Positions 4,014 through 58,254 of a stretch of DNA of 58,254 nucleotides are shown here, piece after piece. Numbering within the stretch: position 1 is the first letter of the stretch; the number at the start of each line of letters is the position of its first letter. The notes beneath the pieces were generated by a model, which was given only the letters and a program-made list of their open reading frames with translations, did no database searches and was not told the origin of the DNA. The stretch comes from a virus (Duplodnaviria; Caudoviricetes): positions 1 through 58,254 of the IMG/VR virus record IMGVR_UViG_3300020235_001162. One strand, 5' to 3'. The position numbers and the translations under genes are program-made.

Positions 4014-4022
4014 GTCGTACTC

Positions 4023-7245: not shown

Positions 7246-7260
7246 GTCGCCATTGGCGAC
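7246..7260. repeat. 15-bp palindrome GTCGCCAWTGGCGAC, copy 1 (intergenic, abutting an RBS)
   Basis: exact match read from sequence. Confidence 0.95.
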
Positions 7261-26857: not shown

Positions 26858-27777
26858 CAGCGGCTCCCACTGAAGTCAAGCGTGAGGTCAGACAGGTTGG
26901 CAGGTACTTCGGCATCCCGATTGAGGCTGCCGATCGACGAGTTGTTGAGGAAGTTTCTGATGGTTCTACCGCGAGCCGTCTGAAGGTCCGCGAATCTATC
27001 TGCCCTTATTGTTTCTAGCACGCCAAGCTGTTGCTGCCCGGCATGTAACGCCGCCGCCAGACCAGAGATCGCCTCAAATGTGTCGAACCTGATCCCGCTG
27101 TCTCGGATGGCTGACTCCAGACCCTTCAAGTCGATCCGCCACCCGGCCCTCTGGCTCTTGTACTGACCCTGCTGGATCCCATTGATCTCGTCGGCGTTCT
27201 GGGAGTTCTTCCACGCCGTGAAGGCCTCGGTGGCAATGCTGTACCCGGAAGCAGCCGCGTTCGCCGCCGCCGCAGGGACGCTCGGTGTGCCAGCGTTGGC
27301 CGCAGCAGCGATGTCGATTTTCTTGTCATGTGCTGCACGCTCTTCACGCTTCAAGCTCTCGTATTCTGTCCATGTTGCAAAAGCTGTGGGGTCGTTCACC
27401 TGATTCATGAGGCTCTCCTGCTTGGAGATGCCTGTCGGGGACACGGCGTTGGTCAGGTTGCCCAGAGCCCGCTGGCCGTCGTAGGCGATCTGTGCAATCG
27501 CGAGGATCTTGTTGACCCGGAGGTTTGTGATGAACAGGTTGACCCTGTCCATCGACAGGCGGGCCGCATTGGCGATGGCTTGGGCCTGCTTGGCCGCACC
27601 GAAGGCAGCGATTACCGCGAAGATCCCGGCACCGATGGCCCCAGCCCCAGCGGAGGTCAGACCACCGCCGCCAGTGTCGCCACCAGATAGCGACACTGGC
27701 GGCCCGAAAAATGGCGAGCCGAACTCCCCCGCCGGTATCGTGGCGGCGAACTGTGACGGTTGGGGATGTCGTGGCAT
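26857..27777 (-). CDS. internal virion protein (T7 gp14 position)
   Basis: Gly/Ala-rich hydrophobic N-terminal segment then Ala/Gln helices; synteny. Confidence 0.7.
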   Translation of the reverse strand: MPRHPQPSQFAATIPAGEFGSPFFGPPVSLSGGDTGGGGLTSAGAGAIGAGIFAVIAAFGAAKQAQAIANAARLSMDRVNLFITNLRVNKILAIAQIAYDGQRALGNLTNAVSPTGISKQESLMNQVNDPTAFATWTEYESLKREERAAHDKKIDIAAAANAGTPSVPAAAANAAASGYSIATEAFTAWKNSQNADEINGIQQGQYKSQRAGWRIDLKGLESAIRDSGIRFDTFEAISGLAAALHAGQQQLGVLETIRADRFADLQTARGRTIRNFLNNSSIGSLNRDAEVPANLSDLTLDFSGSR

Positions 27778-41959: not shown

Positions 41960-42510
41960 ATTCGGCCTGCCTACACCCCCCGCCATCCGCTGGGATCCTC
42001 AGGTCGGGATTCCCAGAGCCATTCGCCAAGCGTAGCCCGTCCAACGTCCTACCGTGTCAGTGACCAGAGGGATCCCAGCACCGCCCACCGGGTGTATGGC
42101 GTGGGGCGGCTTGTTGCTCTGGTGTGACGGTGACGACAGGGACGGGTGACCGCTGCTCGCACGGGGGTACTGCGAGTCTGGGTGTGCGGCCTTCCTTTGC
42201 CAACCCGTTGAGAGTTCAACGTGGTAACGGGTACGAACCCACGATACGCGAGGCCCATCAGGCCTGAGTTGTAAAGCCACCCGCTACCGCCGTATAGGCA
42301 ACGGGTGGTGAGGCCCCAACAAGGGGCACCGAAAGGAATCGAAAGACAAGCAGCCACAGGTGGTAGCCTGCGGCTGCTCGGATTAGGTTCAGGGTTCCGC
42401 TCTGGTGACCTCTTCCAAAAGGCCAGAGCGATCCCACCAAGAACCCGTAGATTATGTCGTGTGGAAGAGGTCAACTGGTTCTCCTATCAGGGGTTACCAA
42501 ATCCTGATGC
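41960..42510. ncRNA. hairpin-dense intergenic element (structured RNA or replication-origin candidate)
   Basis: 12-bp IR TGACCTCTTCCA/TGGAAGAGGTCA, GCAGCCACAGG/CCTGCGGCTGC, CGCTCTGG/CCAGAGCG, GAAA loops; no convincing ORF; directly after a promoter. Confidence 0.4.
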
Positions 42511-42562: not shown

Positions 42563-44254
42563 TCAGGCTGGACGACGCCATCCGTTCTCAGCTATCGCCG
42601 TGATCAGATCACTGGCTGCTTCGAACGTCACGTCCTTGGGGTCGTATTCGAACCGCTTGAGCAGCTTGGCCTGCTTGAAGGTGCAGAGCTTCTTCTCCCG
42701 GCGGGCCTGTAGCTCACCGATGACGGTGCTGCACTCAGCGAACGTCATCTGGTCCACGTCATCGACACCGGCACGGCGGAGGAAGCCGATCATCCGGTCG
42801 GTGGCCGGGCGGCCCCGGTTCCACTGCCGCTCACGCCGGGGCGTCAGGTGGAACACGTTGAACGGGCTGATCTTCTGGCTGCGGTAGCGGGCCTTGGCCT
42901 GCACCTTCTTGCGGCGGGCCTGCTCCTCTTCCTCGATCTGGGTAGCGGCCTCGGCAAGGACCAGCTGCATGTTGACGGCCTCGCCGTTCTGCTGCTGCCG
43001 TGCGTTGGCTGCTGCCCGCTCGATGACATCGTCCTCGTACCGACCGCCGAGGATGTCGGCGGTGCTGATGAGCTTGTGCCGTCCGCTGTTGCCGACGAAG
43101 TCGATGATGGTCATCTTCGGCTTGCGGCTCTGGGCGATGGACTTCTTGCGGTCCTCTGGATCCTCCTGTTGACCGAGGAGGTCCACGATGTCGTCGGCGG
43201 GCCGGGTACCACGGCCAGCCATCTGGGCGTAGAGGCACCGGCTCTTGGTTGGCCGGGCCATGGCGATGACCTCGATGCCGGGGCAGTCGAAGCCCTCGGT
43301 GGCGATCATGCAGTTGACGAGGTACTGGAACTTGCCCTCCTTGTATTGCCGGATGATCTCTCGACGCTCGTCCTTGGGAGTGTTCTGGTAGACGAAGCAG
43401 GCAGATCCCGGCTGGTACCGGTTGAATATTTCGCACAGCCGCTTGGCCTGATGGACCGAGGCGGCGAAGACCAGAGTCTGGCGACCGTCAGCGATCTCGC
43501 GGGTGGGCACCGCCACCTCATGCAGGATCTCCTCGTCCTCAAGGATCCCGCACAGATCCTTCTGGTTCAGGTCGCCAGCCGTGGTCCGGACTCCTGAGAA
43601 GTCCAGCTCGTCCACCTCGACGAAGTGCTGCTCAATGGGGACCAGCCAGCCGAGGTCGATGGACTCAACGATCTCCATGTCGAAGGCCACGACCTCAAAG
43701 ACCTTGCCGAGAGCCATTTCGTCGGTGCGGTCAGGCGTGGCCGTGTAGCCGATGACCTTGATGCGGGGGTTGATGCCAGTGTAGTACTCCACGACCCGCT
43801 GGTAGCTCTTAGCAGTGGCGTGGTGGGCTTCGTCGATGATGATGGTCCCGAACTCCTCCGGGTTCATCCGCTCCATCCTGCGGCCCGTACCGGCCCGTGC
43901 GTTCTGGGTCTGGACCGATGTCACGACGAACCGGCTCCGCTTGTCGTCCATGTAGGGGTCGAAGCCATCAACGAGCCGGGACTGGTCGGGCTGGTCGTCG
44001 GCCCGAAGCTCAGCCATCTCGATGACAGGCTCCTCGCCAGTGACGAGGCGGACCTTGTTCACGGCCTGCCGGATCAGCTCGTCACGGTGGGCCATGATCA
44101 GGGTCCGACCATGTTCCGACCGTTGGTTGATCAGATCGGCGAAGGTGATGGTTTTCCCCATGCCAGTGGGCATCACTACGAGGGCGGATGATGCTGCCTC
44201 AAGGGCAGCGTGGGTCTGCTCGTTGCACTGGACCTGATAGTCTCGGAGTTTCAT
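42563..44254 (-). CDS. superfamily 2 DEAH helicase (ResIII/IRC3-like)
   Basis: LRDYQ, MPTGMGKT, IIDEAHH, GYTATPDR, TEGFD, QMAGRGTR; C-terminal ATDRM/CTFKQ repeats. Confidence 0.93.
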   Translation of the reverse strand: MKLRDYQVQCNEQTHAALEAASSALVVMPTGMGKTITFADLINQRSEHGRTLIMAHRDELIRQAVNKVRLVTGEEPVIEMAELRADDQPDQSRLVDGFDPYMDDKRSRFVVTSVQTQNARAGTGRRMERMNPEEFGTIIIDEAHHATAKSYQRVVEYYTGINPRIKVIGYTATPDRTDEMALGKVFEVVAFDMEIVESIDLGWLVPIEQHFVEVDELDFSGVRTTAGDLNQKDLCGILEDEEILHEVAVPTREIADGRQTLVFAASVHQAKRLCEIFNRYQPGSACFVYQNTPKDERREIIRQYKEGKFQYLVNCMIATEGFDCPGIEVIAMARPTKSRCLYAQMAGRGTRPADDIVDLLGQQEDPEDRKKSIAQSRKPKMTIIDFVGNSGRHKLISTADILGGRYEDDVIERAAANARQQQNGEAVNMQLVLAEAATQIEEEEQARRKKVQAKARYRSQKISPFNVFHLTPRRERQWNRGRPATDRMIGFLRRAGVDDVDQMTFAECSTVIGELQARREKKLCTFKQAKLLKRFEYDPKDVTFEAASDLITAIAENGWRRPA

Positions 44255-44284
44255 GTGGGTTCCTTTCGGTGGGTGAGGAGTAGA

Positions 44285-44313
44285 ATGGTAGGCAGATGGT
44301 AGCCTGAAGTCAA
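44285..44313 (-). promoter_or_regulatory. sigma70 promoter, CTAC-N7-CTAC family
   Basis: TTGACT-TCAGGCTACCATCTGCC-TACCAT. Confidence 0.8.
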
Positions 44314-44362
44314 ACCAGCCCCGCAGGTTTCCCCACGGGGCTGGCGTCAACCGAGAGCAGCG

Positions 44363-45315: not shown

Positions 45316-46332
45316 TCACGATGTCTGGCGTGACCGGAGTGCCTCCAGCCACTCGTCGAGGATATCTTCGGGCAGTCCGAAGATGTTCTTGATGCTCGGA
45401 CGGGAGTGCTTGCGGGCAAGTGCCGCCAGCGTCTGAGCCTCGGCTGCGACAGCCGCACCGTTATCCGTGTGCTGCTCGTCGAGCAGGTGCCGGATGGCGA
45501 TGATCTTCTGGCCGACAGCCTCGTCCACCTCAGTCTCCAGCCCGGTGCGGGAGGTGAAGTCCGGGTCGTCGCCAGCCTCCAGACCCAGCACCCTCATGAG
45601 GGCGTACTTGTCTGCGTAGGTGCTGGCCTTGCCCGGCCCCTTGTCGTAGCCGTCGAACTTCCAGCTCCACCCGGTGGAGGCGACCTCCACGTCGATGAAG
45701 TCAGCGGCGTCATCGACGCACTGGAACCGGAAGGTCCATGTGTACTCGGCCCACAGGGCCGGGCCGTGGCTGGTGTCCACGACCTGACACTCATGCCGCT
45801 TACAGTTCAGCGGGTACCAGAGGACGCGGGCCTTCTGGAACAGGGGACGAACGGCCCTCACTAGCTCAGGGTGAGCGACTGCGGAGTCGTAGGCTGCGTC
45901 ACCAGCAGACAGGTCCACCTTCTGGATGTAGTCCCGCTGCTCCCGGATCCACCACAGCCGCTGCTGGATGGTGGCGGTCGCGTCGGGCACGTCGTTCATG
46001 AGCTGGTTGAGCATGGTGACGCCCGCCGTCGCCGAGTTGTCCGGGCTGCTGGCCTCCTTGTCGCCATTGGCGACTGCCTCATGCGACCGGAGGATGCCGG
46101 TGGCGATGTGCATGGCGGTCATGTCCCCGACACCGGGGACCATGGCGGCAAGGTGATCAGCGATCACGGCCACGTTGCCATTGAAGCGTTTGTGGAGGTT
46201 CGCCATATCAGTGGTGGACCAGCCTGCTTCGTGCAGGGCTCGAAAGCAGCGACCCTTCATGCGGTTGCAGTAGCGGTACACCCAGATGTGGAGCGGGTGT
46301 TCGTGGGTAAAGGTGGTGGCGGTGGCAGTCAT
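45316..46332 (-). CDS. erf: ERF-family ssDNA annealing protein with N-terminal HhH-like extension
   Basis: DKGPGKASTYADKYALMRVLGLEAGDDPD ERF signature. Confidence 0.85.
   Translation of the reverse strand: MTATATTFTHEHPLHIWVYRYCNRMKGRCFRALHEAGWSTTDMANLHKRFNGNVAVIADHLAAMVPGVGDMTAMHIATGILRSHEAVANGDKEASSPDNSATAGVTMLNQLMNDVPDATATIQQRLWWIREQRDYIQKVDLSAGDAAYDSAVAHPELVRAVRPLFQKARVLWYPLNCKRHECQVVDTSHGPALWAEYTWTFRFQCVDDAADFIDVEVASTGWSWKFDGYDKGPGKASTYADKYALMRVLGLEAGDDPDFTSRTGLETEVDEAVGQKIIAIRHLLDEQHTDNGAAVAAEAQTLAALARKHSRPSIKNIFGLPEDILDEWLEALRSRQTS
46060..46074. repeat. 15-bp palindrome copy 9 (inside CDS linker, VANGD)
   Basis: exact match. Confidence 0.95.
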
Positions 46333-46715
46333 GGCAACAGGCTCCCTTCGGTGATGTCTTCGATGCCAGCGATCCTGCGGACTTCAGGGTCGCAGTCTTG
46401 GATGGAGCCAAGGCGTCCGTACAGGTCGGCGAGGGCACGGGCGATGGCCCGATTCTCCGCACGCAACCCGGCCTTGGTGAGGACACCGTTGCCCATGGTA
46501 GCTTCACGCTTGAAGGGCCAAGCCTTCTTCATCTGGGTGACCCAGAGGTTCTTGAGGTTGGCGGAGGTGATGGGGTGGCCCAGCTCCGACCCCGCCTTGC
46601 GTGCGACCTCGGTTGCCGTGAGGCCCTTTGAAACACACCAGTCGATGTGCTTGTTCAGCCACTTGGCGAGGGCGTACTTCTGGTTGAACTTCAGTACGTT
46701 GTGTTGTCCGGTCAT
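46329..46715 (-). CDS. hypothetical protein, possible HTH
   Basis: TATEVARKAGSELGHPITSANLKNL; ATGA coupling. Confidence 0.65.
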   Translation of the reverse strand: MTGQHNVLKFNQKYALAKWLNKHIDWCVSKGLTATEVARKAGSELGHPITSANLKNLWVTQMKKAWPFKREATMGNGVLTKAGLRAENRAIARALADLYGRLGSIQDCDPEVRRIAGIEDITEGSLLP

Positions 46716-47548
46716 TTGGACAGCTCCTTCAGACGGTAGGCTGGAACGTCCAGCTCGATGGGTCGCTGCGGCACACCCGGCCACTTACCCGTCTCACTGC
46801 ACTGCTTCCAAGTTTCCAAGTATCGGCGGACCTCGATGCCGCCGAGGGTGAGGCTCTTCTCCCCGATGGGGTACAGGGCACAGTCGAACGGCGGCTCGTT
46901 CTCGACCACCGCCAGCACGAAGTTGGCGTCGGTCTTGCCGGTGATGGTCCGGTAGCCGCCGAGGTAGAAGGCACCTTGAACGTGGTACCCACGGTCGTAC
47001 AGCTCCCGGCTCATGAAGTCCTCGGAGCAGTTGCGGGAGGTCTTCAGGTCACCGAGGGTGGCCCACTTGTCGTCGATCAGGGCATCGACGAGGCCCTTGC
47101 AGAGCAGGCCAGTGACCTCGTCACGCCAGACCAGCATCGCCTCCCGCTCCGGGCCGCGTTCGAACAGGCGGTGGATGTCGGGGTGCTTGTGCAGGGCCTC
47201 GCCCATCTGGCAGGCGTAGTCGTAGGACAGCTTGCCAGTCTCAGGCAGGATGATCTTGCCCTCGGCTGCGTTCAAGGCGTCGGCGTATGCCTGCTTGCCG
47301 ACCGTCGTGCGACGGTCAACCTTGGGCATGACGTGGTACCGGGCGGGGAAGTCCTCGGCCTCCAGAGTGGCGACGTGGACTGCGGTGCCGAAGGCCATCG
47401 GTTCGGTCGTCTCTGGGTTGTCCAGCTTGTGACGTGCATACTTCGCGGAGCGAGCCAGCAGCTTCAAGCTCGACTGGTTCGCCGCTCGGATGGCGTCGTA
47501 CTCTTCACGGTCTACACCGTAGAAGATACCGGTTTGGGTGTCGGGCAT
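46712..47548 (-). CDS. RecE/exonuclease VIII-like PD-(D/E)XK nuclease (DUF3799)
   Basis: QSSLK, FGTAVHVATLE, CKGLVD, DLKTS, YHVQGAFY, VENEPPF. Confidence 0.9.
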   Translation of the reverse strand: MPDTQTGIFYGVDREEYDAIRAANQSSLKLLARSAKYARHKLDNPETTEPMAFGTAVHVATLEAEDFPARYHVMPKVDRRTTVGKQAYADALNAAEGKIILPETGKLSYDYACQMGEALHKHPDIHRLFERGPEREAMLVWRDEVTGLLCKGLVDALIDDKWATLGDLKTSRNCSEDFMSRELYDRGYHVQGAFYLGGYRTITGKTDANFVLAVVENEPPFDCALYPIGEKSLTLGGIEVRRYLETWKQCSETGKWPGVPQRPIELDVPAYRLKELSK

Positions 47549-47590
47549 GTGGTGAGTCCTTTCAGAAGGTGAGGAAATGAACAGAGTCAC

Positions 47591-48829: not shown

Positions 48830-48863
48830 AAAAGCCCGGCGTCAGCTTGAACCGACGCCGGGC
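48830..48863 (-). terminator. intrinsic terminator
   Basis: GCCCGGCGTCGG-TTCAAG-CTGACGCCGGGC-TTTT. Confidence 0.75.
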
Positions 48864-49991: not shown

Positions 49992-50236
49992 AACGAGTGT
50001 CTCCCTTCGGCTTGCAGGTGACGGGCGAGTGCCGCCGCGTCAGGATCTTCGGCGGGGATGGGGACGAGGGCGAGGGCCACGAACGTGCCATCGTCTTCAC
50101 ACACCAGCAGCCCGCCGCGTGGCACCTTGGCCTCGGCGGAGCTACGGGTCTTGATGCGGCGGGAGTGAGTCGCCACACACAGGCAGTCGCGGGACACAGC
50201 GATGTCCAGAGCCTGCCGGGGACTGTGAGATTTCAT
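49988..50236 (-). CDS. hypothetical protein
   Basis: CTCACCGAAAGGATC RBS element before MKSHSPRQ. Confidence 0.7.
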   Translation of the reverse strand: MKSHSPRQALDIAVSRDCLCVATHSRRIKTRSSAEAKVPRGGLLVCEDDGTFVALALVPIPAEDPDAAALARHLQAEGRHSL

Positions 50237-50273
50237 GCGGATCCTTTCGGTGAGTGAGCAGGACAGAAGCTGC

Positions 50274-50302
50274 ATTGTAGGCAAGTGGTAGGCTGAAGTC
50301 AA
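50274..50302 (-). promoter_or_regulatory. sigma70 promoter, CTAC-N7-CTAC family
   Basis: TTGACT-TCAGCCTACCACTTGCC-TACAAT. Confidence 0.85.
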
Positions 50303-50313
50303 ACGTACAGCCC

Positions 50314-50341
50314 TTGACTGACGGTCGTCGATAGGTAGTAT
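50314..50341 (+). promoter_or_regulatory. divergent promoter, likely giving a leaderless mRNA
   Basis: TTGACT-16-TAGTAT; 6 nt separate it from the ATG at 50348. Confidence 0.65.
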
Positions 50342-50347
50342 CAGGAC

Positions 50348-50656
50348 ATGCCACCGAGTCAAACGATGGTGACAGGCAAAGAGATGCTGGAGAATCTGGA
50401 GAGAATCTTCAGGGAGCTGGACGAGATGGGTGTCCCGATGGGCTACGCCGTCGGTTGTCCCCACGGCACTCCCAAGACGCCGGGTGAGCCCCCGTACCGC
50501 CGGTTTTTCACCTTTCGCGGTCGTCGGCTGGAGTTCTGTGACAAGTGCCACGACGCCATCGAGGACGAGATGAAGGCGATGAACAGAAACCTGCAAAGCC
50601 CCGCCCCGGCGTCAGCCGGGACAGGGGGAGGAGAAAGAAGAAAGGACTTGTGGTGA
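50348..50656 (+). CDS. counter-oriented small Cys-containing protein (YHS/TRASH-like metal-binding candidate)
   Basis: GCPH...FTFRGRRLEFCDKCH; has its own promoter. Confidence 0.6.
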   Translation: MPPSQTMVTGKEMLENLERIFRELDEMGVPMGYAVGCPHGTPKTPGEPPYRRFFTFRGRRLEFCDKCHDAIEDEMKAMNRNLQSPAPASAGTGGGERRKDLW

Positions 50657-50671
50657 GTCGCCAATGGCGAC
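50657..50671. repeat. 15-bp palindrome copy 11 (between convergent stop codons)
   Basis: exact match. Confidence 0.95.
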
Positions 50672-50678
50672 CGCCGCA

Positions 50679-51059
50679 TCATACCGGCATCGGCATGCGG
50701 AAGGACTCCCGTGTCTCGACCCGGACGGCGAGGTCGGGCAGCCCTGCGGCGATCAGCCGGGCGACGTTGAAGTCGTTGAAGATGGCGGCCTCTTGGGAGA
50801 CGCCCGACCAGTGACCACTGGGGGTCAGGAACTTCGGGCCTCCAGTGTAGCTCATGATGGCGAACTGTGCCACCTCCAACGGAGCTTTTGACCTCCGGGC
50901 CTTGACCTCGGTTGGGAAGGGGTCGAAGGGTGCCATCGTCTTGGTCGCCACTGCGGCAGCACGCTCGGCGGTCTTGTCGCCTAGAAGTTTGCGGTCCAGC
51001 TGGCTTGCAGAGTCAACGCCCGCACTCTGCTCGCGGGGATCTTGGGGTGAGTTGGTCAT
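50679..51059 (-). CDS. hypothetical protein
   Basis: 126 aa, ATGA overlap. Confidence 0.7.
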   Translation of the reverse strand: MTNSPQDPREQSAGVDSASQLDRKLLGDKTAERAAAVATKTMAPFDPFPTEVKARRSKAPLEVAQFAIMSYTGGPKFLTPSGHWSGVSQEAAIFNDFNVARLIAAGLPDLAVRVETRESFRMPMPV

Positions 51060-51391
51060 GAGAGATCCCAGTCGGGGTCAGGGGTGATCGTTTCGCCATC
51101 AGAGTTGATGACCGTGAAGCCGATGCGGTGAAGAGTCACGATGATTCGTCGGTTCGTGGTCAGGCTGGCCTCCGGTGCCGGGTCGTCGTAGTCGTACAGC
51201 GGCCCGTAGCTGAACTGGCACGAAGTCTCGCCGGTCTTGATCCAGATTGACAGGCCCATGGGGCAGCCCCAAGTGCCGCCGATCTTGAGTGAGCGGAACA
51301 CTCCTCGGATCCACGCAAGGTCAGATGGTCGGGGTTCCCAAGCCTCAACGTCCGCAGGCTTGTCGCGGGGTTCAGAATGTGAGTGTGACAT
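51056..51391 (-). CDS. hypothetical protein
   Basis: 111 aa, WEPRPSDLAWIR...LKIGGTWGCP. Confidence 0.7.
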   Translation of the reverse strand: MSHSHSEPRDKPADVEAWEPRPSDLAWIRGVFRSLKIGGTWGCPMGLSIWIKTGETSCQFSYGPLYDYDDPAPEASLTTNRRIIVTLHRIGFTVINSDGETITPDPDWDLS

Positions 51392-51420
51392 AAAGACAGC
51401 CGCCCGGTGCCCCGGACGAC

Positions 51421-51720
51421 TGACGAGATTACGTTGCCTATTTTCAGGATGCTGGAGAAGGCACGAACTCCACCCTACCCGGTGATCAACCCGGTCGGGA
51501 CGACCCTTTACGCTAGCTCATGATTGCACCTCGCTGGCCTGTTCGTGGGGTGTTGCAACACCGCACTCTGTGGCCGGTTTCGGGTCAGCCTCACGGCTGC
51601 CCATTGACCTCCTTGGAGGCCGGTTGGTTGTGTCTCGTCAATGCCGGGTCGGCGAGCTTTCGCCCACCCCCAGCATCCCATGCCTTTCCCGTCTGCCCTT
51701 CCGGGTTGACCAGCTAGGGG
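51421..51720 (-). ncRNA. structured ncRNA candidate (about 300 nt)
   Basis: GNRA-capped hairpins and several long-range complementary segments; no good ORF. Confidence 0.5.
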
Positions 51721-51738
51721 CGTCGGCACGGGCTACGG

Positions 51739-51918
51739 TCACGGCTCCACCAGTCGCAGGTGGATCGGGGCGATGGCGGTCAGGTGGGCTCTCACCTCGG
51801 CCTCGGTGCCCTGCATCCTGACCGGGTCGCCCGTGAAGGGGTCGGTGCAGTTGTGAATGCAGGCCCTGCCATCTTCGACAGTGATGCGAGTCTCGATGAA
51901 GTGTTGCACGGCGTTCAT
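51739..51918 (-). CDS. small hypothetical protein
   Basis: AGGAG upstream of MNAVQHF. Confidence 0.6.
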   Translation of the reverse strand: MNAVQHFIETRITVEDGRACIHNCTDPFTGDPVRMQGTEAEVRAHLTAIAPIHLRLVEP

Positions 51919-51971
51919 ATCAGAGGTACTCCTGTACGGGTCAGTCCTGACAACAAAGGTCGGCAGAATAA

Positions 51972-52160
51972 TTTCAGTGTGCCCCCTGCCCGCCACCACG
52001 CATTGGGTGGTGCCTGCCGGTCATGACGGGCAGGTGAGGTTGGGCATGGTCCGGTTGTTGATCCGGCTATTTATCCCCGTTCGATTGCTCCATGGCTGTG
52101 CGGAATGCATTCCGCCCCCCAAGCAGGGACTCGTTTCAACGGGCAGGGGACACACTGAAA
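51972..52160 (-). ncRNA. 189-nt element closed by a 21-bp inverted repeat
   Basis: TTTCAGTGTGCCCCCTGCCCG (51972-51992) and CGGGCAGGGGACACACTGAAA (52140-52160); the one mismatch is a U-G pair on the - strand. Confidence 0.55.
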
Positions 52161-52198
52161 AGGCTGGCCGAGGCTTCCACCCCGGACCCAGCCGCCAC

Positions 52199-52669
52199 TC
52201 ACTCAAATGCTTGCTCTTCCCGGTAGGCCTCGTAGGCCTCGTCGATCCGGCGGCCCTCGGCGTCAGCCATCGCATCGACTCTCGCGTCGTGCAGGGCGTC
52301 GGGGTCTGGCCCATCGGGGCCGTCGTTGTCGTCGATGTCCTCAAGGGTGAACAGGTCGTCGGCGTCGAGCTTGTGTTCGGTCAGGAACACCCGGATGGCA
52401 GCCTCGTCGGTCAGCTCCCAGTCGGTGAAGCTGCCGCCGCAGCCGACCCAGTCGCCGTCGATGACCTCGGCCTCGCAGTGGGCCGTGTCCTTCTCGACGT
52501 GCAGGTAGGTCAGCTTCAGCGTCTCCACCCACTCCTCGCCGGGGCAGGTGTGGCTGGGTGCCTCAAAGTGGTAGGCCACCTCGCCCTTGAGGAACAGGCG
52601 GAACTCGGTGACGACGCCGTCGTTCGTCTCGGTGGTCTTGAGGTCGCGTGTCGCTGTGATCGTGGGCAT
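52199..52669 (-). CDS. highly acidic early protein
   Basis: GAAAGGAGG RBS; D/E-rich C-terminal half. Confidence 0.8.
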   Translation of the reverse strand: MPTITATRDLKTTETNDGVVTEFRLFLKGEVAYHFEAPSHTCPGEEWVETLKLTYLHVEKDTAHCEAEVIDGDWVGCGGSFTDWELTDEAAIRVFLTEHKLDADDLFTLEDIDDNDGPDGPDPDALHDARVDAMADAEGRRIDEAYEAYREEQAFE

Positions 52670-52752
52670 GGTTGCCCTCCTTTCGGTGAATGAAGTGAGC
52701 AGATGCTCAGGGGCGGGCGTCTTCGTCATGTTGCCCGCCCCCGGCCATGCGG

Positions 52753-52947
52753 TCACTCCCTGTTCGGTTGGTCAGGTGACTCTACGACGCGGGTGTCTTC
52801 GACGGCGGTCCATCGGAACATCAGGTCTTCGACGTAGTCCTCGGCGGCCTTCTTGCCTGTCTCGGTGAGAGGCCAGCGGAGCGTGTTGCTGGTGTAGACG
52901 CCGGGACGGCAGGAGTAAGTGTGAACCTCGGCGGCGTAGCTGTTCAC
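52753..52947 (-). CDS. small early protein
   Basis: GAAAGGG RBS, GTG start, first gene after the promoter at 52985. Confidence 0.6.
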   Translation of the reverse strand: MNSYAAEVHTYSCRPGVYTSNTLRWPLTETGKKAAEDYVEDLMFRWTAVEDTRVVESPDQPNRE

Positions 52948-52984
52948 GGGATCCCTTTCAGTGAGAGAGCGGGGGCAGAACAGG

Positions 52985-53013
52985 ATGGTAGGCAAGTGGT
53001 TGCCTCAGGTCAA
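52985..53013 (-). promoter_or_regulatory. sigma70 promoter, CTAC-N7-CTAC family
   Basis: TTGACC-TGAGGCAACCACTTGCC-TACCAT. Confidence 0.8.
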
Positions 53014-53163
53014 GCCACCCGGCAAGTTTCTTTGCCGGGCAGTGGCGGTGAAAGCCTCCCCGCCCGGTTCCCCGGACGGGTGACTGAGTGGCCCTTGTTG
53101 GCGGGTTGCGACCCCGCCTCACCAACGCTTTTGGCACACTCGCGTGTTGGCTGCCGAGATTCG

Positions 53164-53760
53164 TCAGCCCCACGGGAGGCAGTACTTGTCGGCACAGACG
53201 GGGCCGTAGCCCACGGTCAGGCTGCGGCCATCGGTCAGCTCCTTGCCGCAGAAGCAGCAGGATCCCGTCCGCTGCCCGTAGGCAGTGGCGGTCCCCGCCG
53301 GGTCTTCGGCGAAGTCGTGGAGCAGGGTGACGATGGCCGGGTGGCAGTCCCGGCCCCGGTGCAGGGTGCCATCCCTGTCGATCCGCCCGAAGTACTGGTT
53401 GAGCGGGCTGTGGAAGTTGGCCCCGTTGGTCACCCGGATGGATCCGGGGAACTTGGAGGCCGGTCCACACAGGGCGAGGACGACACGGGTGTCGCCCACG
53501 TCCAGCCGCACCTTCGGGTACTTCAGACCGGAGTCCTTGGCGGTCCTGAACAGGGCCACCATGGCGTCGAAGTCGCCGATGTCCTCGACCGCAGCGGCGG
53601 GTGCCGCTGGCTGGCCGGACTCGGTGGCGAGCTTGTCCACCCAGAACCACTGCTTGTCGGACAAGCCGCCCTTGCGTCGGTACTGGGTGCAGAGGCTGGA
53701 GGCGAAGTTGGACGGTCTGTCCATGTTCTCCAGCGTTTCGATCGCTTCGATGTTGGTCAT
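53164..53760 (-). CDS. DUF6011-domain zinc-finger protein
   Basis: LSDKQW N-terminus; YGQRTGSCCFCGKELTDGRSLTVGYGPVCA. Confidence 0.85.
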   Translation of the reverse strand: MTNIEAIETLENMDRPSNFASSLCTQYRRKGGLSDKQWFWVDKLATESGQPAAPAAAVEDIGDFDAMVALFRTAKDSGLKYPKVRLDVGDTRVVLALCGPASKFPGSIRVTNGANFHSPLNQYFGRIDRDGTLHRGRDCHPAIVTLLHDFAEDPAGTATAYGQRTGSCCFCGKELTDGRSLTVGYGPVCADKYCLPWG

Positions 53761-53824
53761 GATCGTGATCCTTTCGGGGTGAGTGGGTGAAAGCTCCCGG
53801 TCCCCGTCAAGGGGCCGGGTAGCT

Positions 53825-53839
53825 GTCGCCATTGGCGAC
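53825..53839. repeat. 15-bp palindrome copy 12 (directly after a stop codon)
   Basis: exact match. Confidence 0.95.
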
Positions 53840-54118
53840 TCAGTCGGAGATGTCCTCGATCATCTCGCAGTTGAGGGTCACATTCTGAGCCTGAAGGCTC
53901 AGGAGCAGGAGCGTCCGGGCGAGGCTGACGAGCGAGCGTTGCACGGTGCCTCCGCTCATGGGCATGCGGGTCCACTCGGCCCTGATGGAGGTGATGCCTG
54001 CACCCTTGCGGATGAAGGTGGCAGCCCCGGTGGTCTTCAGGAACCGGTCGGTGAAGTCCGCAGCTTTATCGGAGACGTGGATGACGAACGTGTAGCGGGT
54101 GACGTTGGTGTCGGACAT
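53840..54118 (-). CDS. small early protein
   Basis: repeat-associated RBS before MSDTNVTRY. Confidence 0.75.
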   Translation of the reverse strand: MSDTNVTRYTFVIHVSDKAADFTDRFLKTTGAATFIRKGAGITSIRAEWTRMPMSGGTVQRSLVSLARTLLLLSLQAQNVTLNCEMIEDISD

Positions 54119-54315
54119 TGGTCTGATCCTTTCGGTGGGTGAGTGGTGAAAAGCCTCGCCGCCCGGTGTCCCGGATGGGAGGCGTTGCCCGTGGGCATTC
54201 CGATTGCGACCGCTGGCACTCCTCCTTTGCAGGGTCATTCCCCGCCTTGTACAGAGTGGTGAACGTCGCACGGTGAAAGCTCCCGGTCTGCTTTCGCAGG
54301 CCGGGCAGCGTTGGG

Positions 54316-54444
54316 TCATGCCTCCGGGTAGAGGCGGATCAGCTCCTTGGCGAGCTGAGGGCGGGCCACGATGGCACGCCATGTCTGGGTCAGGTGGCCG
54401 AGGCGGACGATCCGCTTGACCTTCTCGATCTGATCCTTGGACAT
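54316..54444 (-). CDS. 42-aa basic early peptide
   Basis: GAAAGGA RBS before MSKDQIEKVKRIVR. Confidence 0.7.
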   Translation of the reverse strand: MSKDQIEKVKRIVRLGHLTQTWRAIVARPQLAKELIRLYPEA

Positions 54445-54508
54445 GTCGGTCCTTTCAGGTGAGAGTGACAGAAAAGCTCCCGCCCCGGTTTCCCGGAGCA
54501 GGCAGCGG

Positions 54509-54742
54509 TCAGTGCAGATGAGGGGCGAAGGGCAGTGGCTCGCAGGTGGGCTCGGTGACGTTGTTGGCAGCCTCCATGAGGTGCCGCAGTTCGACGCTGG
54601 AGAAGAACATCCGGGTCGTCTTGCCCCGGCGGGACTTCGCCACGATGGAGATGCCACCGTATGGGGTCCGGGTGTAGGTCCGGATGGTGTAGGCTCCGCC
54701 AGACTTGTGGGGCTGTGCGTCGGTCGGATTCGTGATACGCAT
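54509..54742 (-). CDS. small early protein
   Basis: repeat-associated RBS. Confidence 0.75.
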   Translation of the reverse strand: MRITNPTDAQPHKSGGAYTIRTYTRTPYGGISIVAKSRRGKTTRMFFSSVELRHLMEAANNVTEPTCEPLPFAPHLH

Positions 54743-54872
54743 GGTCTGATCCTTTCGGGTGAGTGGGTGAAAGCCCCCGCCCCGGTGTCCCGGAGCAGGC
54801 GGCGAACGTATCGGTGCTTACCATTCTCGGCTGCCACGCTGGTGGTCAGTGCATGTCCGAGGCTCCTTGTTG

Positions 54873-55061
54873 TCAGGCGACGGTCAGGCCGTCGCTGGTG
54901 ATCCCGGTCACAATGTTGTCGATGTAGCGGGGTTCGACAACGACCGAACCGGCCATGATCAGCCGGTCGGCGGGCAGGTGCTGCTCACACCAGTTGTCGG
55001 CCTCAGTGGTGAGGGCGGCGAGCAGGATGAGCGAACCGTGGTAGGTGACTTCGAAGTCCAT
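54873..55061 (-). CDS. small early phage protein
   Basis: MDFEVTYHGSLILL...VVEPRYIDNIVTGI; repeat-associated RBS. Confidence 0.8.
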   Translation of the reverse strand: MDFEVTYHGSLILLAALTTEADNWCEQHLPADRLIMAGSVVVEPRYIDNIVTGITSDGLTVA

Positions 55062-55126
55062 TTGTCTGATCCTTTCGGGGTGAGTGGGTGAAAGCTCCCG
55101 CTCGGCGTCAGCCGGGCGGGCAGCGG

Positions 55127-55336
55127 TCAGTCGCGGTGGTTGTAGTACTCATCGCCCGTGACCGGGTCGATTCGCTCGTTCATGTCGAGGGCCACGGTTC
55201 GGGCCTCGCTCTCGGTGGCGAAGTGGTCGTAGACGAACTCTTCGTCAAGGACGCACCAGCGAAGCTCGCCTCGGTGGTCAACGTCGCCGTCCATGGGAGG
55301 GTGGTTCCAGATGCGTGAGACAACTGTGAACTGCAT
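55127..55336 (-). CDS. small acidic early protein
   Basis: repeat-associated RBS before MQFTVV. Confidence 0.75.
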   Translation of the reverse strand: MQFTVVSRIWNHPPMDGDVDHRGELRWCVLDEEFVYDHFATESEARTVALDMNERIDPVTGDEYYNHRD

Positions 55337-55404
55337 GGGAGTAGCCTTTCGGTGAGTGAGTGGGTGAAAGCCCCCGCCCGGCGTCAACCGGGTGGGCGGC
55401 GTGG

Positions 55405-55731
55405 TCAGTCTCGCTGGTCCCACTTGGTGATGGGGGCGGGGCGGCTCTTGCGAGCTGGGCGGCGGGCACGGCGTCGGTCGTCGGCTTCGCAGATGAACTT
55501 GAACGATGCTCGCCTTTTGTCGGTCGCGGCGATGTGGGTCTGAAGTGCGGCCAGCAGCACGCGGGCCTCGGCCTCGGTGAACTCGACCATGCCGGTCTTT
55601 TCATGGATGCAGCTGGTTGAGGTCACTCGGACCCCGGACGGGTTCATGCTGTCCGCCGACATGGCGTGGATGTGGACGCTGCTGCCATCGACAGTGCGGG
55701 TCTGCTTCGGGCTGGAAACTCTGGTAAGCAT
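55405..55731 (-). CDS. early protein
   Basis: repeat-associated RBS before MLTRVSS. Confidence 0.75.
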   Translation of the reverse strand: MLTRVSSPKQTRTVDGSSVHIHAMSADSMNPSGVRVTSTSCIHEKTGMVEFTEAEARVLLAALQTHIAATDKRRASFKFICEADDRRRARRPARKSRPAPITKWDQRD

Positions 55732-55773
55732 GGGTCTGATCCTTTCGGGTGAGTGGAAAGCCAACCTGCCCGG

Positions 55774-55983
55774 TCATGGGAAGGTGGGCGACGGGAAGCT
55801 CCTCGCGGCGTTCTTCTCGTTGATGTAGACGACGTGGGCCAACTCTTCGATGGAGGCCACAGCACTCGCTGCGGACTTCCTGACTTTGGCCCCGTTGGGG
55901 ACGTTCACGGCGGCAGCCTTGATGCCCCTCAAGGCAGCCAAGATGACCTCGACGTGCCCTTGGATCACAGCTTGGTGCGACAT
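55774..55983 (-). CDS. small early protein
   Basis: GAAAGGAGGTG RBS. Confidence 0.75.
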   Translation of the reverse strand: MSHQAVIQGHVEVILAALRGIKAAAVNVPNGAKVRKSAASAVASIEELAHVVYINEKNAARSFPSPTFP

Positions 55984-56048
55984 GATGCACCTCCTTTCGG
56001 GGTGAGTGGTGAAAGCTCCCGGTCTGCTTTCGCAGGCCGGGCAGCTGG

Positions 56049-56372
56049 TCAGACGGTGACGCTCGGCGGGCTGTTGCGGTAGCCGCTCCGCTTGCAGGCG
56101 GAGGTGGTCCGGAACGGCAAGCCACTGCGGCAGCGGTCGCCACCGTGCTGGATGCGGCAGGCACCGTAATGCGTGGGCATCGGGGCGTTGTTGTGACGCC
56201 AGTTCAGGTACGCCAGAGCCTCGACGGCCTCGTCGGCAGTCTCGGTCTTCGCCACGGCGACGACCTCGGAGAGGAAGATGCGGAGGTCACGCTTCGTCCA
56301 GCTTCCGACCTCGCGGGCTGCGGGGAGGGTGATGGTCGTGCCGCCGTACCGGCCTTCTTTGAGAATGCTCAT
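56049..56372 (-). CDS. early protein
   Basis: repeat-associated RBS. Confidence 0.75.
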   Translation of the reverse strand: MSILKEGRYGGTTITLPAAREVGSWTKRDLRIFLSEVVAVAKTETADEAVEALAYLNWRHNNAPMPTHYGACRIQHGGDRCRSGLPFRTTSACKRSGYRNSPPSVTV

Positions 56373-56434
56373 TCTGATCCTTTCGGTGAGAGTGGGTGAA
56401 AGCTCCCGCCGGGCGTCAACCCGGCGGGCAGCGG

Positions 56435-56722
56435 TCAGGGGTAGCTGTAGCCATCGACGGGGGCGGGCTGGAGTCGCACGGCGGGGGTCCAGTCAGCCGG
56501 GGCGGGCAGTGCCGGGGCGTCCGGGACCAGCCCGATGACATCGGCCTGCGTGTCGGACAGGGACTTGGCGAAGGCGATGATCGTCCTCGACGCATCCCGG
56601 ATGGCGGCGAGGTGGCCGGGGCCACGCTCGCCAGCCTCGTTGGAAACGACGCTCGCCCAGTGGATGATCCCGGCGAGGTCGAAGTCCATGACGATGGCAG
56701 CGTTCTTGGTGGTGATCTTCAT
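56435..56722 (-). CDS. early protein
   Basis: repeat-associated RBS. Confidence 0.75.
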   Translation of the reverse strand: MKITTKNAAIVMDFDLAGIIHWASVVSNEAGERGPGHLAAIRDASRTIIAFAKSLSDTQADVIGLVPDAPALPAPADWTPAVRLQPAPVDGYSYP

Positions 56723-56790
56723 TGGTAGCCTTTCGGTGAGTGAGTGGGTGAAAGCTCCCCGGCCCAGTCAAGGGTCGGGGCAGCAGTTGG

Positions 56791-57087
56791 TCAGAGGGTC
56801 TTCCAGCCCCCGCCCTTGCCGGGCTCCCAGTAGTCGATGCGGGTGCATCCGGCGTTCGGCGTGCCGAAGTCGTCGAGGGGTGCGAAGGCTTCGTGGCCCG
56901 TCTCGTCCCCGATGAACTTGCCTTCGTAGCAGACGCCGCCATCGTCGTCGAGCATGCGGAAGCGGGTGCCTCCGCCACTGCCCAGCAGCAGGACATGCTC
57001 GTCGGTCGCGGCACGGGGGCCGATGACTCCGACGCTGCCGTCGTGCTTGCCTTCGATGTGATCCACGGTGATCTTGAATGCGTACAT
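56791..57087 (-). CDS. early phage protein (first ORF of the early operon)
   Basis: FRMLDDDGGVCYEG...FAPLDDFGTPNAGCTRIDY; GAAGGA RBS. Confidence 0.8.
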   Translation of the reverse strand: MYAFKITVDHIEGKHDGSVGVIGPRAATDEHVLLLGSGGGTRFRMLDDDGGVCYEGKFIGDETGHEAFAPLDDFGTPNAGCTRIDYWEPGKGGGWKTL

Positions 57088-57120
57088 TCGGTTCCTTCCA
57101 GAGAGAGTGGTGAGAGACAA

Positions 57121-57200
57121 AGGAGGCGGGGGGATTCGAACCCCCGTGCCAGCAGGTTCCGACGAGCGGCTGTCCTGCTGGGCGTTACCACAACGCCCCC
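57121..57200 (-). ncRNA. tmRNA tRNA-like-domain mimic (80 nt, no tag reading frame)
   Basis: acceptor GGGGGCG/CGCCTCC with G3-U70, stemless D-loop, 8-bp helix, CAC linker, T-arm GGGGG-TTCGAAT-CCCCC. Confidence 0.65.
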
Positions 57201-57211
57201 GTGGTGAGAAA

Positions 57212-57278
57212 TGGGTCGGGCAGGAGTCGAACCTGCTCCGGGCCGTCAACCCGGCTCCTCCCGCTGCTGCCCTCCCCC
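57212..57278 (-). ncRNA. degenerate tRNA-like element
   Basis: T-arm GCAGG-TTCGACT-CCTGC and arm CCGGG-TTGACGG-CCCGG; poor acceptor and D arms. Confidence 0.45.
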
Positions 57279-57571
57279 ATGTCGATGCCTGACGAGGGTC
57301 TGAGGATGGAGCAGTCGGGCCAACCCGATGGAAAACTGCCGCCGCCCGGTTCCCCGGACGAAGGCAGGCACTCGGACCACCCAGAAGGATGGTCCAGAAA
57401 GGTTTGAACTAGACTGGCTCTCGGCGATCTCCTTCCACCATCTGTGTCACTGGCAGTACTCCTTCACCCGCATCGAGTGGGTTGGGTGCCTCTGTGCTAC
57501 CGTCCCTGCCTTCACGGCCTGATCGTCGGCTAGGGGGAAGACGGTTCGGTGGGCGGTCGTCGTCGAGAGTC

Positions 57572-57588
57572 TTGAGTTGTCAAAGAAC
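57572..57588 (-). promoter_or_regulatory. boxA-like antitermination element in the early leader
   Basis: GTTCTTTGACAACTCAA, preceded by a small CTC-CGAA-GAG hairpin. Confidence 0.65.
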
Positions 57589-57725
57589 CGGAGTCTGAGT
57601 TGCCTCTTCGGAGCCGCGTCGTGGCCTTCCCTATGGTCTGCTCCATTCACTGGGCGGGAAGGCGGTGACTGGTCTGGCTTTCGCAGGCCCTTCGTCCGGG
57701 TGTCGGTTTCTGGGACACCGGGGGA

Positions 57726-57754
57726 AGAGTAGGCAAGAGGTAGGGCGAAGGCAA
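57726..57754 (-). promoter_or_regulatory. early-operon promoter, CTAC-N7-CTAC family
   Basis: TTGCCT-TCGCCCTACCTCTTGCC-TACTCT. Confidence 0.65.
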
Positions 57755-57936
57755 GTGATCACCACATATTTATCACACTGGTCCCGCCGACGCTGCCCGG
57801 CTAGACTGCGGGGCGACAGCGATCTTCGACATTCCTCCAGATGCCCGGAAGATGGGCAAGGCCGAAGTGCCCAGCAGTCCAGCCCCGCCGCCCGGTTCCG
57901 CATTCCCATCCGATTGGATGGCAAAGGACACACAAC

Positions 57937-58254
57937 ATGAGCTATGAAGGACAGAGCAACGCAGAGGACGTGGGGCCTCGACCTCCGGAGGACCGCAGTG
58001 ATCGGGACAGCGGGGATGGCTGGACACCTCCGCTGCCGCCACGCCCATCGAGCCTCGCAAGGACCGTCCAACAGCAGAGCCCGTCCGACCAGCCAGCCCA
58101 CCGCGACCAGTTCCATGACGACACCGCCAGTGCTGCCGACCTGCTCGCCACGAAGCCTGTCGCCAATGGCGACTCGCCGCGACCGGTCGAACACACGCAC
58201 TCCTCCCGCTTCCAGCCCGGCAACGTGGCGTGGAAGAAGGGGCAGGCAGCCCGC
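57937..58254 (+). CDS. 3'-truncated ORF, terminase small subunit-like candidate
   Basis: AAAGGA RBS; open to the window end; disordered N-terminus then SRFQPGN motif common at TerS N-termini. Confidence 0.5.
   Translation, partial: MSYEGQSNAEDVGPRPPEDRSDRDSGDGWTPPLPPRPSSLARTVQQQSPSDQPAHRDQFHDDTASAADLLATKPVANGDSPRPVEHTHSSRFQPGNVAWKKGQAAR
58159..58173. repeat. 15-bp palindrome copy 13 (inside CDS, VANGD)
   Basis: exact match. Confidence 0.95.

Follow-up and report, generated by a model that had tools for sequence, protein, structure and literature searches.

A promoterless array of small phage genes linked by a repeated hairpin-and-leader unit in an uncultured podovirus

The virus record IMGVR_UViG_3300020235_001162 (Duplodnaviria; Caudoviricetes), analyzed here over its full 58,254 bases and referred to as the window, carries on its minus strand an array of 11 small open reading frames (ORFs), from 57087 down to 53164, that are separated by copies of one composite unit. 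This unit reaches from the stop codon of one gene to the ATG of the next and consists of a 12-13 bp G+C-rich hairpin with one bulge, TTTC, a G-free, CA-rich leader CACCCACTCACC, and GAAAGGA. The stem of the hairpin co-varies, and no promoter-like site was found in the array spacers. The array is a promoterless form of the repeated regulatory cassettes of phage early ORFan regions and is not an integron. On balance, it seems probable, though far from assured, that it constitutes an early polycistronic block in which each gene ends in a standard intercistronic unit acting on the RNA, recombination between the units being a by-product.

Early ORFan blocks are the seat of the fastest-changing host-takeover and anti-defence genes of phages, and most of what is understood about the acquisition and expression of such genes comes from T4-type phages with their promoter-early stem-loops (PeSLs). 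The array described here represents a promoterless version in an uncultured podovirus lineage, in which one promoter would serve about eleven genes, each with a co-varying hairpin and a standard translation start.

The array and its intercistronic unit

All 11 array ORFs (g1-g11, 42-198 aa) start with ATG and end with TGA; two further ORFs, g12 and g13, follow downstream.

56791-57087, minus strand: g1, 98 aa; phrog_12268 (E 1.8e-10), a widespread phage family with no assigned function; G+C at third codon positions (GC3) 0.86
56435-56722, minus strand: g2, 95 aa, no family match
56049-56372, minus strand: g3, 107 aa, no family match
55774-55983, minus strand: g4, 69 aa
55405-55731, minus strand: g5, 108 aa
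55127-55336, minus strand: g6, 69 aa
54873-55061, minus strand: g7, 62 aa
54509-54742, minus strand: g8, 77 aa
54316-54444, minus strand: g9, 42 aa
53840-54118, minus strand: g10, 92 aa
53164-53760, minus strand: g11, 198 aa; C-terminal DUF6011 domain (PF19474, E 2e-12)
52753-52947, minus strand: g12, 64 aa, GTG start
52199-52669, minus strand: g13, 156 aa

The GC3 of the array ORFs is 0.81-0.90, compared with 0.80-0.82 in the genes for portal, nozzle, and terminase. Family matches are confined to g1 and g11, and an all-versus-all BLASTP comparison of the array ORFs returned no pair below E 0.1. A first-pass annotation, made from the sequence alone, had described consecutive small, unrelated ORFs with a common stop-to-start spacer, and the 11 minus-strand ORFs without mutual BLASTP similarity agree with that description.

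For the spacers, we trained a covariance model (R1) on the nine full copies and scanned the whole window with filters off, reporting matches at E<=10. Of 57 matches, just 11 reach at least 37.9 bits, all of them on the minus strand within 53758-56786. They comprise the nine training copies (57-88 bits) and two copies outside the training set (55729-55791 and 54272-54309). The next best matches, at 13-20 bits, lie elsewhere on the minus strand and resemble only the leader or only the hairpin. The individual spacers are as follows.

56723-56793, minus strand: spacer g1-g2, full unit; hairpin 56754-56784 with loop TTGACT; R1 70.1 bits; -19.2 kcal/mol, z -3.4
56373-56437, minus strand: spacer g2-g3, full unit; hairpin 56402-56432; R1 81.7 bits; -26.1 kcal/mol, z -4.4
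55984-56051, minus strand: spacer g3-g4, full unit; hairpin 56015-56045 with CTGC-GAAA-GCAG top; R1 74.2 bits; -20.4 kcal/mol
55732-55776, minus strand: spacer g4-g5, degenerate; hairpin lost, leader and ribosome site kept; R1 41.9 bits (55729-55791); -3.7 kcal/mol
55337-55407, minus strand: spacer g5-g6, full unit; hairpin 55370-55400; R1 76.3 bits; -22.8 kcal/mol
55062-55129, minus strand: spacer g6-g7, full unit; hairpin 55094-55124; R1 87.9 bits; -21.4 kcal/mol
54743-54875, minus strand: spacer g7-g8, 133 nt; a scar-like part of ~65 nt, then a full unit; hairpin 54773-54803; R1 78.5 bits
54445-54511, minus strand: spacer g8-g9, full unit; hairpin 54476-54506; R1 64.5 bits
54119-54318, minus strand: double spacer g9-g10, 200 nt; hairpin 54279-54309 and a broken leader with no gene behind (g9-x; R1 37.9 bits at 54272-54309), then a full unit with hairpin 54153-54183 (x-g10; R1 57.0 bits at 54116-54185)
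53761-53842, minus strand: spacer g10-g11; palindrome GTCGCCATTGGCGAC (15 bp, 53825-53839) first, then a full unit; hairpin 53793-53823 with bulged A; R1 80.7 bits
52670-52755, minus strand: spacer g12-g13, degenerate; R1 13.9 bits at 52667-52747

Most spacers are full units, as described in the first-pass annotation, but not every gene pair is joined by one: g4-g5 is without the hairpin, and g7-g8 and g9-g10 contain extra material. The first ~65 nt of the g7-g8 spacer hold a ribosome site, ATG, one codon, and TGACC, and look like the scar of a lost gene. The g9-x hairpin region and the g3-g4 spacer share 38 identical bases covering stem and TTTCACC. Similarly, the range initially assigned, 52670-57120, does enclose the array, while its outer parts, 52670-53160 and 57091-57120, hold degenerate relatives only.

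The units are ~65 nt long, near-identical direct repeats. Their hairpin begins 2-6 nt past the stop codon, a run of 3-4 T follows it in all copies, and the G-free leader is unstructured. The stop context itself belongs to the unit, as TGACC is found in 8 of the 11 array genes versus 4 of 39 other minus-strand ORFs (Fisher p = 1.2e-4).

Folding energies of the 11 hairpins tested range from -19.2 to -26.2 kcal/mol, with z of -2.2 to -4.6 relative to dinucleotide shuffles in all 11; counted by unit, a stable stem-loop is present in 10 of 11, the g4-g5 unit having lost it. The nine-copy alignment, all from this one genome, is gap-free through the stem, with 89.7% of 117 cells paired compared to 73.1% in shuffles and 40-56% in slid registers. 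Double changes occur at 7 of the 13 stem pairs (19 cells), and the covariation score of 0.468 (0.171 in shuffles) was reached by none of 500 shuffles. A covariance model of the aligned spacers had been suggested with the first-pass annotation; model, covariation, and folds agree on the structured hairpin with a single bulge and a conserved stem base that it described.

The stem ends read GCY and RGC in all nine aligned copies, and the lowest stem pair is U-A in six copies and C-G in three. The bulge (column 6) is a G in 7/9 copies and an A in 1/9, while the x-g10 copy has a T there and carries unpaired bases on the 3' side instead. Pair 12-25 is a conserved weak spot, being a C.A or A.C mismatch in 5/9 copies and U.G in 2/9. 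Three apical types had been distinguished and can now be counted: YTGAC loops (5 copies), CCGG-GNNA-CCGG (4), and CTGC-GAAA-GCAG (2). Further, the UGA of the stop codon can pair with the UCA of UUUCA, which lengthens the stem in the minimum free energy (MFE) structure of 4 of the 13 spacers folded; the extension is seen in g2-g3, g3-g4, and g6-g7, and as a long-range pair in g9-g10. A CUUUC-GAAAG pairing that would hide the ribosome site was dropped as a candidate; its five pairs are invariant, are not in the MFE structure, and show no covariation. Rfam gave no match at the gathering score and two sub-threshold matches in 50000-58254, one of them (27 bits versus a cut-off of 47) opposite the g3-g4 spacer, on the antisense strand.

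Promoters, leader, and operon-end hairpins around the array

At the head of the middle operons of the phage stand three near-identical 29-bp sigma70-type promoters with the pattern TTGACY, 17 nt ending in TGCC, TACMAT. A scan with this motif finds three sites in the window and none in the array.

52985-53013, minus strand: promoter directly after the array, TTGACC-17-TACCAT
50274-50302, minus strand: promoter of the same motif
44285-44313, minus strand: promoter of the same motif

A consensus scan of the minus strand of the region yields promoter-like sites at 53013, 50302, 49795, and 47619 only, and neither scan places a promoter-like site in the array spacers (53761-56793). The CTCACYCACC-GAAAGGA leader with a start codon is also present downstream of the promoters at 50302, 44313, 53013, 49795, and 47619. 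Because the same type of leader follows each of the phage's promoters, it is the general translation start of this phage and not specific to the array.

Hairpins of the same family or of similar build close operons.

52985-53095, minus strand: array end; family-type hairpin 53054-53086 (R1 19.2 bits) with TTTCACC, a second hairpin 53018-53039, then the 53013 promoter
50595-50628, minus strand: family-type hairpin before the 50302 promoter (R1 13.4 bits)
52162-52193, minus strand: similarly built hairpin past g13, terminator-like, with TTTTC
48834-48863, minus strand: similarly built hairpin, then CTTT(T)
42347-42380, minus strand: similarly built hairpin, then CTTT(T)
42277-42308, minus strand: similarly built hairpin, then CTTT(T)

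A TTT follows within 6 nt in 13 of 313 strong hairpins of the sense strand, against 3 of 361 of the antisense strand. Taken together, the family hairpins at operon ends and the general nature of the leader point to terminator-type hairpins rather than to dedicated recombination sites.

Upstream of g1, ~840 nt are without a convincing ORF.

57726-57754, minus strand: candidate early-operon promoter (TTGCCT, 17 nt, TACTCT), with CTTGCC abutting the second hexamer as in the three conserved promoters
57091-57720, minus strand: non-coding leader with two tRNA-like folds at ~57120-57200 and ~57215-57290 and a family-type hairpin at 57342-57361 (R1 7.5 bits)
57091-57129, minus strand: degenerate leader and ribosome site of g1 (R1 18.8 bits at 57085-57129)

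Judged by its similarity to the conserved promoters, the site at 57726-57754 may drive the early array. One of the two tRNA-like folds is cloverleaf-like in RNAfold, with a 7-bp acceptor stem and a T-arm, and each is followed by a TTT(C/G)TCTCACCAC tail resembling the one past the array hairpins. ARAGORN (default settings) and Rfam call no tRNA in these folds; with relaxed settings, ARAGORN proposes a doubtful intron-containing tRNA across both. The folds may be processing signals, decoys, or att remnants.

Proposed role of the unit and its alternatives

If the units act on RNA as we suppose, each hairpin would be of the intrinsic-terminator type but a weak terminator, given its short U run and the masking expected from a ribosome that halts a few bases before it. 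The ribosome finishing the upstream ORF would cover the 5' arm of the hairpin; for E. coli, a terminator a few bp past a gene is described in PMC4824070 as almost fully repressed. Read-through RNA would carry a stable hairpin behind each cistron and, after termination or an endonuclease cut in the U/C-rich single strand, this hairpin could keep exonucleases away from the 3' end of the message upstream. The G-free leader, in turn, would keep the ribosome site open and provide the same translation start for any gene. One promoter would then supply about eleven small early proteins in graded or translation-dependent amounts. Recombination between the ~65-nt repeats, with the help of the encoded ERF protein and RecE-like nuclease, could delete, duplicate, or swap gene-plus-unit cassettes, because the units are near-identical direct repeats suited to homologous recombination. 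We infer that such recombination is a by-product exploited by evolution rather than the primary function. In support of a role in the transcript, each of the 11 R1 copies has the sense orientation and lies between a stop codon and a start codon. Like intrinsic terminators, the array hairpins combine a G+C-rich stem with a following T run, here of only 3-4 bases, on the sense strand, and members of the family close operons before promoters; they differ in that they lie 2-6 nt past stop codons inside an operon without distal promoters and must therefore be read through.

Several observations weigh against this proposal. The standard T-run terminator rule (5 T in 8) is passed by one of the 11 array hairpins, that of g8-g9 (site 54502-54479), and the region has no excess of terminator-like sites, with 7 found against 7.3 expected. 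Without internal promoters, a series of ten true terminators would leave little transcript for the distal genes. Moreover, the antisense strand folds better in seven of the 11 copies (in one by 0.1 kcal/mol) and the sense strand in four, and the C.A or A.C mismatches at pair 12-25 on the sense strand (5/9) would read G.U on the other. Consequently, the covariation is proof of a hairpin as such and does not assign it to a strand or a type of molecule. An unrelated array of the same architecture in locus L091 (see below) has its T run before the hairpin rather than after it, so that a terminator role is not general to the architecture. Finally, the operon promoter at 57726-57754 is a candidate only; the site does not pass the consensus scan.

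Possible traces of recombination come from Logan contigs of four metagenome runs aligned on 51500-58254. These contigs are short and of low depth (2.4-9.3), and only the covered parts were interpreted. Six joints are listed, four of which touch a spacer and two of which lie inside g11. One contig (X3; depth 2.4, shorter side 37 bases) joins 55357 to 55756, skipping 55358-55755, with eight other letters in between. In this variant exactly g5 and one unit are gone, both break points fall in leaders, and one normal-looking hybrid leader stands between g4 and g6. X6 carries another top on the g1-g2 hairpin (56742 to 56778); its second joint, from 56745 to 54272, rests on 33 bases within a hairpin present twice and is probably a further view of that exchanged top. 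A joint in X2 (56724 to 55341) connects the g5-g6 leader to g2 across 31 shared bases. The Logan graph is built from 31-letter words; this joint spans a shared repeat and was set aside as a possible assembly artefact. The X3 and X6 joints, the internal scars, and the 38 identical bases fit an exchange between units, on thin evidence. The idea that the spacers are recombination boundaries, put forward in the first-pass annotation, thereby gains from the clean X3 loss with its break points in leaders, whereas the general leader and the operon-end hairpins speak against dedicated recombination sites. Its statement that an ERF/RecE pair is at hand was correct (ERF family at 45316-46332; PDDEXK DUF3799, RecE-like, at 46712-47590).

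Early genes of phage T7 are separated by RNase III sites, and cleavage of the array hairpins by RNase III or another double-strand-specific enzyme would likewise yield monocistronic messages with a stable, protective 3' hairpin. We regard this as unlikely. Here too, irregular hairpins lie between cistrons in the early polycistronic block of a podovirus, one with T7-like portal, nozzle, and terminase. The conserved bulge together with the weak pair 12-25 (7/9) is the kind of helix distortion that, according to PMC3867540, directs single-strand cuts, and the stop UGA can lengthen the stem with UUUCA in 4/13 folded spacers. Yet the stems of 12-13 bp compare with a minimum of ~11 bp and an ideal of 22 bp given in the same source, and are thus about half the ideal length; the stop-to-stem distance varies from 2 to 6 nt, so that the extension is not constant. 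Unlike the T7 sites, the array hairpins are eleven near-identical copies fused to a standard leader, and terminators are the better match for the family members that stand at operon ends before promoters. It is very improbable that each spacer is instead a promoter for a phage-specific or modified RNA polymerase, giving one transcription unit per gene. A conserved block of ~35 nt does stand directly before each start, as in phages bringing their own polymerase, and YTGAC, present in 5/11 loops, resembles the first hexamer of the phage's own promoters. However, the sequence at the -10 position, 17 bases after YTGAC, is CCCACT, which is without the TA of a -10 element; 6/11 copies are without YTGAC; and the same leader occurs downstream of ordinary promoters, i.e., inside their transcripts. 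A T7-type RNA polymerase domain was not found in the window, a weak negative since the control search matched nowhere, and a giant 3284-aa protein encoded there has no PDB or Pfam match. N4-type hairpin promoters were dropped as a candidate, these null searches of the giant ORF giving no evidence of such a polymerase.

PeSLs of T4-type phages (Arbiol et al, 2010, PMC2839356; Comeau et al, 2014, PMC4122927) are the closest parallel for a reading in which the units exist mainly to spread and shuffle ORFans on an integrase-free platform, their expression signals being payload. We give this little credence. Both systems consist of a repeated composite unit with a stable stem-loop that reaches from the stop of one ORFan to the ribosome site and start of the next; PeSLs occupy a plastic early region, for which indels and swaps by unit-to-unit recombination, and thus such a shuffling role, are proposed in PMC2839356. 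The array units span exactly stop to start and flank unrelated ORFans, four of the six joints touch a spacer (the clean X3 loss, the replaced top and the second joint of X6, and the 31-base join of X2), g3-g4 and g9-x share their 38 bases, scars of lost genes are present, and the ERF protein and RecE-like nuclease are encoded nearby. In addition, 8 of 80 loci with g1 homologues carry at least eight repeated 11-mers, and the seven inspected show varied motifs, some as intergenic cassettes. Against this stand the short, low-depth contigs behind the joints, the X2 overlap with its possible false assembly join, the two joints inside g11, a g7-g8 scar that resembles a within-gene deletion rather than a unit-to-unit event, and a distant syntenic relative (G002) without such repeats. 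Moreover, each PeSL has a strong sigma70-type promoter and every gene is a unit of its own (PMC2839356), whereas the array spacers have no promoter; the present podovirus belongs to an unrelated lineage; and mini-circles and exchange between genomes are features described for PeSLs. A related proposal, which we hold tentatively and consider rather doubtful, makes the unit a portable "expression adaptor" of an integrase-free cassette platform: any ORF between two units would be terminated, stabilised, and translated, ERF/RecE-type recombination would capture, drop, and reorder host-takeover genes, and unrelated phages, such as that of L091, would have arrived at this solution with other sequences.

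Finally, the spacer might be a DNA-level element, either a two-part operator GCYGCCC...GGGRGC for a dimeric protein or a single-stranded or cruciform hairpin serving as a recombination, replication, or attC-like site. This is quite improbable, although either strand folds equally well and the phage carries other dispersed DNA sites. A comparable case is that of the SAS and ESAS repeats of Cluster K mycobacteriophages (Pope et al, 2011, PMC3203893). As described there, a conserved asymmetric ribosome-site sequence stands a few bases before the ATG of unrelated genes, in a single orientation and in the non-structural half of the genome, often with an inverted repeat just upstream. The 17-bp ESAS repeats are thought to bind protein, and the departures from them reported in that paper do not support pairing; in contrast, the array stem co-varies and abuts the previous stop. 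The 13-bp SAS consensus (3-7 bp before the start) has one match at two mismatches in the window, inside an ORF, with 1.7 expected. The centre of an operator need not stay self-complementary, yet the array hairpin does so through double changes, and its strict single orientation and fixed link to stop, T run, and ribosome site fit a role in the transcript. Integron attC sites have conserved core sites at the ends of their palindromes. The array shares with them the form of an imperfect palindrome with an extrahelical base (one bulged base in 8/9 copies) past every promoterless ORF, but has no attC-type core at the stem ends and carries the next gene's translation signals in its unit. No match in the window was obtained for tyrosine recombinase/integrase PF00589, resolvase (serine recombinase), or HUH/Y1 transposase, searches for which were positive in 14, 12, and 6 of 14 control genomes, respectively. 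The first-pass annotation was therefore right that the window holds no integrase, while the attC likeness that it noted comes down to a bulged hairpin after an ORF.

A literature search for such an array found PeSLs and SAS/ESAS and nothing identical, the supplements of PMC3203893 and PMC2839356, with more repeat alignments, lying outside the search. The array does not amount to a new principle, as terminator-type hairpin, standard leader, and repeat recombination are each already known. If confirmed, the RNA-level role that we favor would make the unit a compact natural "insulator plus ribosome site" part and a marker by which early regions and the boundaries of cassettes could be located in phage genomes from metagenomes.

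Relatives, independent analogues, and genome context

Exact and gapped motif scans of IMG/VR returned single chance matches only, and a motif scan of GTDB genomes none; in JGI metagenomes the scan recovered only contig L015, which is not independent of the window. Searches for loci with single proteins (g11, the RecE-like protein, the portal) found no relative of the phage. A portal profile matched nothing in GTDB genomes and two distant phages in IMG/VR; one of these, G002, has a portal 35% identical to that of the window, is syntenic with 16 window ORFs matched, and contains neither an R1 match nor a repeated spacer. Portals 66-84% identical to the window's exist in ENA, Logan, NCBI, or short JGI contigs only.

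Homologues of g1 number 100 in the protein collection and are found at 80 IMG/VR loci, none of which gives a strong R1 match (best 19.7 bits). Among the seven repeat-bearing loci inspected, L059, L060, and L049 have promoter-like repeats, preceded by a terminator hairpin in L059 and L060, and four loci deserve listing.

L059, 3574-6142, plus strand: GNRA-loop terminator and a conserved 35-nt block
L060, 5408-12588, plus strand: terminator and TTGCGC-17-TAGACT promoter
L056, 1626-14244, plus strand: 20-bp palindrome ACTGATGGACGTCCATCAGT overlapping stop codons, before a CTCAC...TGAAAGGAAAC leader
L091, 4952-10430, plus strand: array of 12 units, 10 of them full (stop, hairpin, CA-rich G-poor leader, CAACGGAGA, ATG), with small ORFs between

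L091 is a complete 39.5-kb genome with terminal repeats and has no detectable portal homologue of this lineage. Of the cells in its stems, 97.7% are paired, and both sides have changed at 5 of the 11 pairs, for instance GTGTACCCC/GGGGTACAC versus GTACACCCCC/GGGGGTGTAC. As its T run precedes the hairpin, the feature common to both arrays is a hairpin plus an open leader, not a terminator. This sequence-unrelated analogue suggests a recurrent design.

In all four metagenome runs, a 40-base segment inside g1 (56842-56881) recurs in many otherwise unlike contigs, with a summed depth of up to 43 and contigs ending loosely on either side; the segment matches PLDDFGTPNAG, the best-conserved motif of the g1 family.

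The window comprises the entire record, which IMG/VR classes as a provirus and for which CheckV estimates 93% completeness. It has 61% G+C, and its minus strand carries nearly all long ORFs. Pfam and PHROGs recognise the following genes, in addition to an HNH protein and a DUF932 protein; the giant ORF, separated from the nozzle gene by two ORFs, is listed with them.

7482-9068: terminase
14259-24113, minus strand: 3284-aa ORF, giant putative virion protein
27777-30002: nozzle protein
33392-34927: T7-type head-tail connector (portal)
42563-44350: helicase
45316-46332: ERF-family protein
46712-47590: PDDEXK DUF3799 protein, RecE-like

PHROG matches of the 3284-aa ORF are partial only and lead to families of unknown function; the Pfam and PDB null results mentioned above are from sequence searches. 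Megablast against 50,697 phage records gave no match to the window, and the best tblastn match of the terminase in the phage collection is ~22% identical; the phage therefore has no cultured relative in that collection. It is a new podovirus-like phage, T7-like in layout.

The 4.2-kb JGI contig L015 is 99.8% identical to window positions 56089-58254 (2166 bases in common) and, with its positions 2166-4213, extends 2 kb beyond base 58254. The plus-strand ORFs of this extension have no Pfam match; one encodes a Cys-rich repeat protein (CGNG..D.GE.C repeats). The right boundary of the record may thus cut phage or flanking DNA. At the other end of the window, a winged-helix repressor-like ORF lies at 150-611 on the plus strand.

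A perfect 15-bp palindrome, GTCGCCAWTGGCGAC, has 13 copies genome-wide (0.01 expected), starting at 7246, 10715, 17805, 23925, 31742, 35769, 39538, 41151, 46060, 48804, 50657, 53825, and 58159. Many of the copies stand at gene junctions, two lie within the giant ORF, and one further copy is present in the L015 extension. The palindrome could be an operator-like, nicking, or modification site.

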